From Escherichia coli O157:H7 (GTDB taxonomy: Bacteria > Pseudomonadota > Gammaproteobacteria > Enterobacterales > Enterobacteriaceae), in the NCBI RefSeq assembly GCF_013167455.1, contig NZ_CP038328.1: 64,000 bases of DNA, one strand, 5' to 3'. The position numbers and the translations under genes were made by a program. The notes under the pieces are model-generated. The model searched no databases. It was not told the DNA's origin and worked only from the letters and a program-made list of their open reading frames with translations. Positions 58,098-59,051 of this stretch are shown piece by piece; the first letter of the stretch is position 1, and each line of letters begins with the position of its first letter.

Positions 58098-58804
58098 ACG
58101 ACACGGTTTGTAGTTACGTTCCTTCGGTGAGTGAGTACCTGTGCGTCAGGGTAACGCAATCAGTTCAGGTTTAGCGGGGTGTCAAGTCGGTTTGGCTAAC
58201 CGACCGCAGAATTAACTGTACCTTTAAAGGTCGCCCCCGATATATCTGCCTGTCAGACATATCGCCGATTCGGTATCTCACTACATAAAACTCCTTAAAA
58301 AACAATGCGATTCTGTTGGTACGAAGCTTTCAGTAAGTCAGTCCGGAGAAGCGCCAGTACGATACAGAATGAGGTTGAAAAAAACGTTCACGTCTGGTCA
58401 CTTCTTCAAATGTTAAAAAACATCTCGTAAAGAGCCAGTTTATGCGGGTTCGTTGAGTAGACGTGCGAGCGTCACTTTGTCAGCTTTAACGCTGACGAAA
58501 GTGACGCCCGCACAGCTTCAAACTCCACATGCACACGCAAGCGACCAAATTTCAAATGGTCTTATGCCGTGCGCACAGTCATAAGAAGCGCATGCGGAAA
58601 GTCAGAAAATATCTTAAGACGCAGATTTTAAAGGCGTTTTTATGCCAGTCTGCCGGGAATACACAGTAGTCCGGTTGTCCGGAAGCACCACGGTAATCCG
58701 AAGGAAAAATCAACGTACCTCAATCACCGTAGTGATATCCGTTCCCAGAGGCTAAACGGATGTACCACCATAAAGGCATCCTCTTTCAGGCTACGAGGAT
58801 ATTG

Positions 58805-58896
58805 CAATCACCCGAAGGCGTTTCTCTCAGATTGCTGAAACATTGGCTGGCAGTCACCCGAAGGCGTCCCTCTCAGACTGCTGGAACATTGGCTGG
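58805..58896. repeat. Two tandem 46-bp direct repeats
   Basis: CAATCACCCGAAGGCGTTTCTCTCAGATTGCTGAAACATTGGCTGG then CAGTCACCCGAAGGCGTCCCTCTCAGACTGCTGGAACATTGGCTGG. Confidence 0.6.
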
Positions 58897-59051
58897 TCGC
58901 AAAAGCGACAGTTAATGCAAATACAGGTTAACAAAAAGGGAAATCTGCCGTCAACCCAACCATATGAACATGTTGATTTCATTATGAATGTGATGTTCTA
59001 ATATAAATTAATCAGTAACTTCATAAAAAGAATATAAGAAACAGATAATGC

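Follow-up and report, generated by a model that had tools for sequence, protein, structure and literature searches.

What fills a tract of 956 bp in which no gene is found is the question raised by this locus, which lies at 58096..59051 of a 64,000-nucleotide stretch of the Escherichia coli O157:H7 genome (contig NZ_CP038328.1; the whole of this stretch is called the window here). Based on lists of open reading frames (ORFs), homology, synteny and the literature, the tract, whose elements read on the minus strand, is probably the relaxase-proximal intergenic region that comprises the origin of transfer (oriT) of an SGI-4-like MPF_G integrative and conjugative element (ICE), orphaned in the tellurite-resistance/adherence island (TAI), where it would serve in cis as a transfer origin and would also be transcribed.

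The tract has a GC content of 45% and is sharply delimited. Its left limit, 58096, is the first base past the right end of an IS66-family insertion sequence (IS) element (...GGAATATTAC, whose last base is 58095), and its right limit, 59051, is the base preceding the ATG, at 59052, of an ORF of 245 amino acids (aa). A sequence-only reading of this DNA had noted about 950 bp with all frames closed, and indeed 58100-59050 is not touched by any ORF that reaches 60 aa; the longest one within 58096-59051, counted from start to stop, has 52 aa. This is unusual against the coding density of bacteria, but not for a sequence of this length as that reading had supposed, since 22% of mononucleotide shuffles of the 956-bp tract likewise have no ORF of at least 60 aa; thus, the lack of ORFs is not statistically odd. 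The nine small ORF peptides of the tract gave no Pfam match above threshold, a small ORF behind a GAGG at 58713 was rejected because its start codon is not kept in relatives, and a search of a phage collection gave no match. The tandem repeats and the long hairpin described below lie far beyond chance, and both are kept with compensatory changes in dozens of related loci. The set compared comprises about 55 loci, namely BLAST-retrieved E. coli chromosomal ICEs, Salmonella SGI-4, plasmids of Klebsiella, Pantoea and Serratia, and about 45 metagenome homologues. The last were obtained with a pattern scan on the hairpin arms, which yielded 120 loci, the rest being chance palindromes that were removed by BLAST. 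A strict pattern built from the conserved-loop hairpin gave only one uninformative 329-bp match in genome contigs.

The sequence-only reading had proposed an Rfam scan, and a cmscan of 55000-62000 at E ≤ 1 identified the tandem repeats as the STAXI motif (RF01728), with an EFASI-like element downstream. The STAXI match extends over 58759..58910 on the minus strand, scores 134.3 bits against a gathering score of 40.5 (E = 8.6 × 10-30) and covers model positions 1-153 of 153; it consists of a 5' hairpin and three pseudoknot units, of which two are full (46 nt) and the third is degenerate. The two tandem 46-bp repeats that had been claimed (58804..58895) are therefore STAXI units 2 and 1 at 58804-58849 and 58850-58895, respectively, and they are 89% identical, the differences between them being compensatory (GUUCC/GGGAC in one, GUUUC/GAAAC in the other). 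A score above the gathering threshold and at least two tandem pseudoknot units place this copy within STAXI. The neighbourhood of Ssb, topoisomerase, anti-restriction and integrase genes, which is an associated and not a structural feature of the motif, is absent from the window, where the flanks are the IS66-family element and the 245-aa ORF without Pfam match, but it is present in the intact relatives (ArdA, ArdC, topB, ssb and an Integrase_1 gene).

To assign a strand to the STAXI fold, the types of base pairs were counted in 66 distinct units, collected with selection criteria that treat G.U and A.C alike. Helix P1 showed 357 Watson-Crick, 22 G.U, 7 A.C and 10 other cells, and the pseudoknot helix showed 283, 19, 7 and 21, respectively, so that the two helices together contain 41 G.U against 14 A.C cells, with several pair types at most positions. 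The closing pair of helix P2 is G.U in 56 of the 66 units, and the loop is TTCG in 60. From the excess of G.U over A.C, the G.U closing pair and the TTCG loops, the STAXI fold is that of the minus (gene-sense) strand, and its features are of RNA type.

The EFASI-like element (RF02957, a divergent subtype) lies at 58130..58283 on the minus strand and aligns with the full model at 48.9 bits (gathering score, 51.2; E = 1.3 × 10-7). Because the score is under the gathering threshold, this copy is called "EFASI-like". It is 87% identical to the element of the related locus L010 and 77% identical to that of L009, which itself scores 55.0 bits; the other relatives score 64-91 bits. According to the Rfam text as quoted in PMC12370729, the name means "Enterobacteriaceae, Frequently Around STAXI and Integrases", and the motif has STAXI several hundred bp upstream of it and integrase genes downstream. 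The first of these relations holds in the window, where the element is 475 nt downstream of STAXI (58759 to 58283) on the same strand. The integrase-type gene is missing, its place being taken by the IS66-family end at 58095.

Between STAXI and EFASI, two small conserved hairpins follow STAXI and precede two further ones, here called M1 and H, neither of which has an Rfam match at E ≤ 1. M1 (58529..58576, minus strand) was recognized in the alignments: its stem, GACC/GGUC in the window, covaries in relatives (GGCC/GGCC, GCCC/GGGC and UGCC/GGCA), and its loop of 9-13 nt (AUUUG..AAAUUU) is conserved. A pairing of this loop with the CCAAUGUUCC linker of STAXI was considered and dropped, as it shows no covariation across subtypes. 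H (58463..58513), found by inverted-repeat search, folding and alignments, is the strong inverted repeat that had been placed at about 58468-58507; its arms are at 58463-58478 and 58498-58513, each of 16 nt and 94% complementary, with an additional inner helix of 6 bp. As RNA, the window copy forms a 25-bp hairpin of -41.5 kcal/mol, and stems of 17-25 bp were obtained for each of the 24 variants folded. Sequence conservation is seen in the lower stem, GCGTCACTT/AAGTGACGC, which has one bulge; the upper stem covaries freely, and the helix is extended into the flanks. H is not assigned to either strand, its preference not being clear: the sense strand is the more stable in 16 of the 24 variants, with a mean difference of 1 kcal/mol. 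An intrinsic terminator was rejected for H, since no T-run follows it on either strand and a terminator scan did not call it. H was found in 13 of the 14 BLAST-retrieved relatives. Because its arms are conserved in sequence, its structure is kept and it is neutral as to strand, and because inverted repeats of this sort are used by MOB_H and other relaxases, H is the most likely candidate for a relaxase recognition element. The remaining segment between H and EFASI is a variable spacer (58284..58462, minus strand) that was delimited by alignment and from a mosaic of BLAST matches; it is common only to one subtype of relatives (L009, L010, L014 and L015).

All of these elements form a single minus-strand module in the order sigma-70 promoter, STAXI array, M1, H, variable spacer and EFASI, and this module is kept as a unit across E. 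coli, Salmonella SGI-4, Klebsiella, Pantoea, Serratia and the metagenome contigs. The substitutions within it are compensatory in helices, and the indels are not multiples of three. The modules are mosaics, the 5' half of the window copy resembling one lineage and the EFASI half another. Folded as RNA, the minus strand lies at z = -7.8 against shuffles, and the opposite strand folded as DNA lies at z = -5.6; over the whole module, folding energies favour the sense strand in 10 of 11 loci, but they favour it after shuffling as well. Mid-block and EFASI alignments that mix subtypes were too heterogeneous for RNAalifold, which recovered no more than pieces of structure from them.

In the intact loci, the surroundings of the module are conserved in the order TraG-N/type IV secretion system (T4SS), small genes, module, Integrase_1/Phage_int_SAM_2 gene, second STAXI array, ArdA or ArdC, DUF1281 and N6-methylase. 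The upstream genes are TraG-N and the TIGR0375x genes of MPF_G secretion. In every intact locus, the module is followed by a gene for an "integrase domain-containing protein" of about 300 aa (Pfam Integrase_1 and Phage_int_SAM_2), with weak similarity to XerC; this gene begins about 110 nt past the end of the homology with the window in 11 intact loci. A small gene separates it from the second STAXI array, and small genes of no known type stand between that array and ArdA/ArdC; Pfam and NCBIfam searches with the neighbouring small proteins found no families. Relatives of the Integrase_1 protein (22-29% identity) are encoded on many plasmids of 3-20 kb in Acinetobacter, Francisella, Glaesserella, Clostridium perfringens and Bacillales, a distribution that fits a family of mobilisation proteins wider than the ICEs compared here.

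The promoter at the head of the module (58925..58954, minus strand) was read from the sequence and from a pattern kept in relatives. It has a -35 hexamer TTGACG (58954..58949), a spacer of 18 nt, an extended -10 TG (58933-58932) and a -10 hexamer TAACCT (58930..58925), with a predicted transcription start at about 58916-58919. The window copy scores under the threshold of a generic promoter scanner. Of 41 distinct module-type arrays, however, 33 have the pattern TTGAY.-N17/18-(TGn)TAnnnT about 61 nt ahead of their first STAXI unit, and in those upstream regions it is the single match on the sense strand, antisense matches being rare. In 50 of 52 loci, the interval from H to the downstream relaxase gene has no second promoter motif on either strand, and terminator scans from STAXI to that gene gave nothing above chance; STAXI and EFASI are thus most simply parts of one transcription unit. 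A 2025 paper (PMC12370729) obtained reverse transcription-quantitative PCR (RT-qPCR) signals for "STAXI" and "EFASI" in vesicle RNA of a strain of Shiga toxin-producing E. coli (STEC), and its primers match the window sequence exactly. The tract is most likely transcribed from its own promoter on the minus strand, as judged from sequence.

STAXI is not confined to this position. SGI-4 has three arrays, all on the sense strand; of the other two, one follows the second gene of the relaxase operon and one lies between topB and the STY4534/ssb genes, and the latter location explains the name of the motif. Second and third arrays were located inside ICEs (L009, 12473-12598; L010, 6290-6595; L139, 4525-4675; L140, 8566-8717), where they occupy intergenic gaps within strings of same-strand genes, without the conserved promoter, and in L009 and L010 the internal array begins about 45-55 nt past the upstream stop codon. 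As the promoter is present in only four of 30 internal arrays, STAXI is not tied to the 5' end of a transcript.

The assignment to a transfer origin comes from the gene that follows the module. According to a preprint of February 2026 (10.64898/2026.01.13.699239), the MOB_M relaxases, which are related to tyrosine recombinases and tied to MPF_G ICEs, have been systematically missed and annotated as integrases. Two of its seed relaxases, WP_033567157.1 and WP_047656026.1, are the products of the genes downstream of the module in SGI-4 and in RM13752 (our locus L009), respectively. The same preprint states that O157 TAI islands carry an oriT-comprising region, oriT_rM6, and it gives the oriT region of TAI as about 60% identical to the SGI-4 oriT that was localised experimentally by Neupane et al. 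2025 (dsaf023). In our global alignment, the window tract and the SGI-4 intergenic region share 55% identity over all columns, with peaks of 70% in STAXI and in M1 plus H. By its homology and synteny with L009 and SGI-4, whose relaxases the preprint assigns to MOB_M, the tract belongs among the oriT-comprising regions. From the motifs, architecture, synteny, promoter and STAXI strand observed here, and from the literature for the MOB_M status and the oriT activity of SGI-4, we infer oriT activity for the window copy and a role for each of its sub-elements.

The complete module is found without a relaxase gene on small plasmids of 3.1 kb and 5.3 kb and, in interrupted form, on an IncK2/Z plasmid, which fits a cis-acting element that is retained by hitchers. 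Because the whole module, and not a short site, is retained, STAXI and EFASI would also seem to matter in cis, although this is a hint and not proof. The two small plasmids come from poultry E. coli (L003, NZ_CP059920.1, 3140 bp; L004, NZ_CP100506.1, 5319 bp). In the former, STAXI scores 139 bits and EFASI 77 bits, and the only gene, a Rep_1 gene for rolling-circle replication, is on the opposite strand; a search of this plasmid for a CTTGATA-type nick site was negative, and the idea of a rolling-circle single-strand origin was given up. A stretch of L003 at about 200-260 looks by eye like a ColE1 bom/oriT, which we presume to be the better account of its typing as "mobilizable", and L003 and L004 may thus be hitcher plasmids with two different oriTs.

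The insertion of the IS66-family element removed the last ~110 nt of the region together with the relaxase operon and left the region an orphan. It would still act in cis as an origin of transfer: the MOB_M relaxase and the T4SS would come from a helper ICE, the relaxase would recognize hairpin H and nick the region, and the island would be exported. The region would also be transcribed from its own promoter as a long structured leader, on the sense strand of which STAXI and EFASI would fold. A more specific and tentative proposal is that STAXI and EFASI are not free-standing small RNAs (sRNAs) but integral cis parts of the MOB_M transfer origin, with H as the recognition or nicking hairpin and with the pseudoknots and EFASI serving in relaxosome assembly, strand conversion or transcription-coupled opening of oriT. 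Such a division of labour would explain why hitchers keep the whole module of ~0.85 kb and not a short nic site.

Several observations weigh against assigning an origin of transfer to this tract. The last ~110 nt ahead of the relaxase start are missing from the window copy, and oriT_rM6 is by construction "the first intergenic region upstream of the relaxase", so that the oriT could be a small part of the tract or could rely on sequence lost to the IS. One plasmid copy of the module, that of the IncK2/Z plasmid pTB-nb2, is without H. Promoterless STAXI arrays at two other places in SGI-4 mean that STAXI cannot simply be "the oriT". Besides these, the EFASI of the window is 2.3 bits under the Rfam gathering score, and the published RT-qPCR signal is not strand-specific. 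In pTB-nb2 (L005, 6800-7480), H is precisely missing with both flanks kept, and an IS100 separates STAXI from EFASI; this plasmid is a natural deletion variant that could inform on the role of H.

Among the alternatives, the one that survives best, possible but on balance doubtful, is that the tract acts purely as RNA, either as one long structured RNA or as STAXI and EFASI sRNAs freed by processing at the long hairpin, which would regulate the relaxase/anti-defence operon in cis or act in trans (for example, as a protein sponge). The window copy would then be a functionless or only trans-acting relic, with oriT activity elsewhere or incidental. As to identity, the structured non-coding RNA that the sequence-only reading had listed first is borne out by STAXI, the EFASI-like element and the conserved promoter pointing into them, and a role as RNA would be in keeping with the position of this promoter immediately upstream of STAXI, the lack of another one ahead of the relaxase gene, the RT-qPCR signal and the folding of the minus strand far below its shuffles. 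The sense-strand G.U bias, the conserved G.U closing pair and the cUUCGg tetraloops, which stabilise RNA but not DNA, speak in the same direction, as was argued by Weinberg et al. 2010, and the near-perfect stem of 22-25 bp has the size of an RNase III substrate, which it may be. However, the opposite strand also folds well as DNA, the internal STAXI arrays are without promoter, and the literature gives oriT activity to the homologous region of SGI-4. Moreover, the module is intact where there is no downstream operon to regulate (in the TAI island and the two small plasmids), which argues for a role in cis at the DNA level or for an autonomous one.

It is unlikely, though partly compatible with a transfer origin as is the RNA alternative, that the folds of STAXI and perhaps of EFASI form in DNA, in the strand that conjugation exposes, and serve as priming signals or as an Frpo-like promoter for complementary-strand synthesis or early expression. 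Single-stranded DNA (ssDNA) was raised as an option for STAXI by Weinberg et al. 2010 (PMC2864571) on account of its ssb, topoisomerase and anti-restriction neighbours, and the SGI-4 arrays are indeed dispersed on one strand beside topB/ssb and anti-defence genes. The MobK paper argues that relaxases of the tyrosine-recombinase type would need single-strand initiation (ssi) sites on the DNA strands, and in SGI-4 the anti-defence operon headed by the module is read in the direction of the MOB_H TraI/integrase end, an arrangement similar to that of a leading region. The fold, however, is on the gene-sense strand, whereas leading-region genes use the transferred strand as template (this strand argument is not decisive), and the TTCG loops are RNA-type. 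Nor does the plus strand of the tract have a -35/-10 pair, in a long hairpin or otherwise, and promoter-like hexamers are also missing downstream of H, so that the feature that defines Frpo/ssi is lacking.

A recombination site of att or attC type, in which H would be the folded or duplex target of a tyrosine recombinase acting as a recombinase, is very improbable. The sequence-only reading was close in suggesting a recombination or att-like site insofar as the tract lies, in intact relatives, directly upstream of the gene of a tyrosine-recombinase-like MOB_M relaxase and has been named an oriT-comprising region, and the Integrase_1 and Phage_int_SAM_2 domains and weak XerC similarity of that gene product would suit a recombinase. 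The conserved outer arms and variable, covarying centre of H also recall the layout of attC, and Weinberg et al. 2017 note that their RNA-motif method picks up attC sites as well. Nevertheless, the tract is not an island or prophage junction; the 46-bp unit, for which a check at such junctions had been suggested at the outset, recurs inside conjugative islands and not at their ends. The module is in the middle of the ICE and not at an end or beside the true integrase, which is 34 kb away in SGI-4. In addition, 16-26 bp separate the arms of H, as against 6-8 bp in duplex core sites, the preprint classes the gene product as a MOB_M relaxase, and no repeated cassettes are seen.

The type III toxin-antitoxin RNAs ToxI and CptI consist of tandem repeats of ~36-45 nt, each a pseudoknot, behind a promoter, and so resemble STAXI in architecture. 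A similar RNA or antitoxin decoy, processed into units that neutralise an endoribonuclease toxin, would not be out of place among anti-defence genes, but it is highly improbable here: no ToxN/AbiQ/CptN-type gene follows any array, the next genes encoding the Integrase_1 protein and then small proteins without Pfam match, and Rfam assigns the repeats to STAXI only. Least credible of all is the scar of a decayed protein-coding gene, also suggested by the sequence-only reading, for which nothing speaks beyond the closed frames and some short plus-strand "hypothetical proteins" in RefSeq over the homologous region of some genomes, since these ORFs are not conserved and are closed in the window, the nine peptides have no Pfam match, shuffles are ORF-free at a similar rate, and conservation tracks base pairing (compensatory helix substitutions, indels out of frame) and not reading frames. 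Both of these explanations fail tests of their defining features.

About 573 complete E. coli genomes (O157:H7, O145, O111, O103 and others) contain the 951-bp query once each, with an identity of 99% or more and with no annotation under it. The annotation around it lists terW, nested IS66/IS682 elements, a hypothetical gene, hok, L31 type B, fragments and the ure operon, which identifies the setting as the O157-type tellurite/urease island (TAI, OI-43/48). The ICE-derived part of the window runs only from 58096 to ~61400; it is 88% identical to the ICE of E. coli G8 over 58495-61314 (2.9 kb) and, at the EFASI end, 87% identical to the ICE of VTB97420v over 58095-58659. The relaxase gene is replaced by the IS66-family end at 58095.

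On the other side of that junction, the final 150 bp of the IS66-family element occur as a tandem duplication (57796-58095, the two copies being 87% identical), so that the element ends in two minus-strand terminal inverted repeats, GTATTGTTCCGGCGAACTC at 57927-57945 and GTAATATTCCGGCGAACTC at 58077-58095. In F-type plasmids this end is present only once, with ~94% identity. An IS682-type IS66-family element (tnpA, tnpB and a 537-aa transposase, minus strand) at 54364-56780 is inserted in the tnpC of this outer element and splits it into two annotated pseudogene fragments. To the right of the tract, the 245-aa ORF (59052-59789, plus strand) is AT-rich, is divergent from the module promoter and has no Pfam match; it corresponds to a RefSeq hypothetical protein of 672 bp and is kept beside the module in the E. 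coli G8 ICE. A match to the sok antitoxin RNA (RF01794) at 60790-60948 on the minus strand reaches 50.5 bits, under the gathering score of 59, and adjoins a Hok/Gef gene annotated in an identical O157 record; this is probably a divergent hok/sok locus from the ICE, as the layout in E. coli G8 is the same. A gene for the zinc-independent paralogue of ribosomal protein L31 (type B; ~61100-61365, minus strand) is also located within the ICE remnant and recurs between TraG-N and the module in several intact ICEs.

As the motifs have been known since 2010 and 2017 and the type of locus was named an oriT region in the 2026 preprint, an element of this kind is already known. That preprint makes no mention of hairpins or secondary structure, and STAXI, EFASI and the promoter go unmentioned for this region in the literature searched. 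Three points thus appear to be unstated in that literature: that STAXI and EFASI are domains of a MOB_M oriT region, that one conserved promoter is common to both, and that two further conserved hairpins lie between them. Both motifs have been catalogued for 9-16 years as orphan "sRNA" motifs, and their link to a MOB_M oriT is a useful and testable lead, which gives a concrete setting to two orphan Rfam motifs and to a poorly understood class of relaxases. For the TAI island of O157 and other STEC no route of spread has been known so far, and an orphan region usable as oriT by SGI-4-like ICEs would, if real, supply one. In genome annotation, the tract is better labelled as STAXI, an EFASI-like element and a putative oriT region than left blank or filled with spurious short ORFs.

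In comparison with known systems, the STAXI of the window has the same helices, CCAAUG linker and UUCG loops as the published motif (Weinberg et al. 2010, PMC2864571), matches it over the full length and shows no structural difference. Its intact relatives stand in the same neighbourhood of ssb, topoisomerase III, anti-restriction and integrase-like genes, whereas the IS has deprived the window copy of these DNA-handling genes. As to function, the motif was published as "unknown, RNA or ssDNA"; here it is assigned to a promoter-bearing module upstream of a MOB_M relaxase gene. The window copy likewise agrees with EFASI (Weinberg et al. 2017) in the several hundred nt by which it follows STAXI on one strand, in the alignment of the full model and, as seen in relatives, in the location upstream of an integrase-like gene; it differs in an enlarged first hairpin, in having CCUGAAC in place of ACUCAAC and in the missing gene. 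With the Frpo/ssi elements (Masai and Arai 1997; Samuel et al. 2024, PMC11541004) the tract shares a structured non-coding DNA that heads anti-defence, ssb or methylase genes of a conjugative element and exists in several copies per element. It differs from them in that it has no long hairpin with -35/-10 hexamers, that the fold is on the sense and not the template strand, and that an ordinary duplex promoter is conserved instead. The oriT_rM6/SGI-4 oriT region is the same genomic object, from which the window copy differs in having no relaxase gene, that is, in being in the "iOriT" state. The known MOB_M oriTs of SGI1 (MpsA/MpsB), pIGRK (MobK) and pCW3 (TcpM) resemble the tract in layout: these cis-acting intergenic segments, 125-186 bp long, are rich in inverted and direct repeats and precede a gene for a tyrosine-recombinase-like relaxase. 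However, the region in the window is 5-8 times longer and holds folds catalogued in Rfam, and its promoter is upstream of the whole region, whereas that of pIGRK is between the oriT and the gene.

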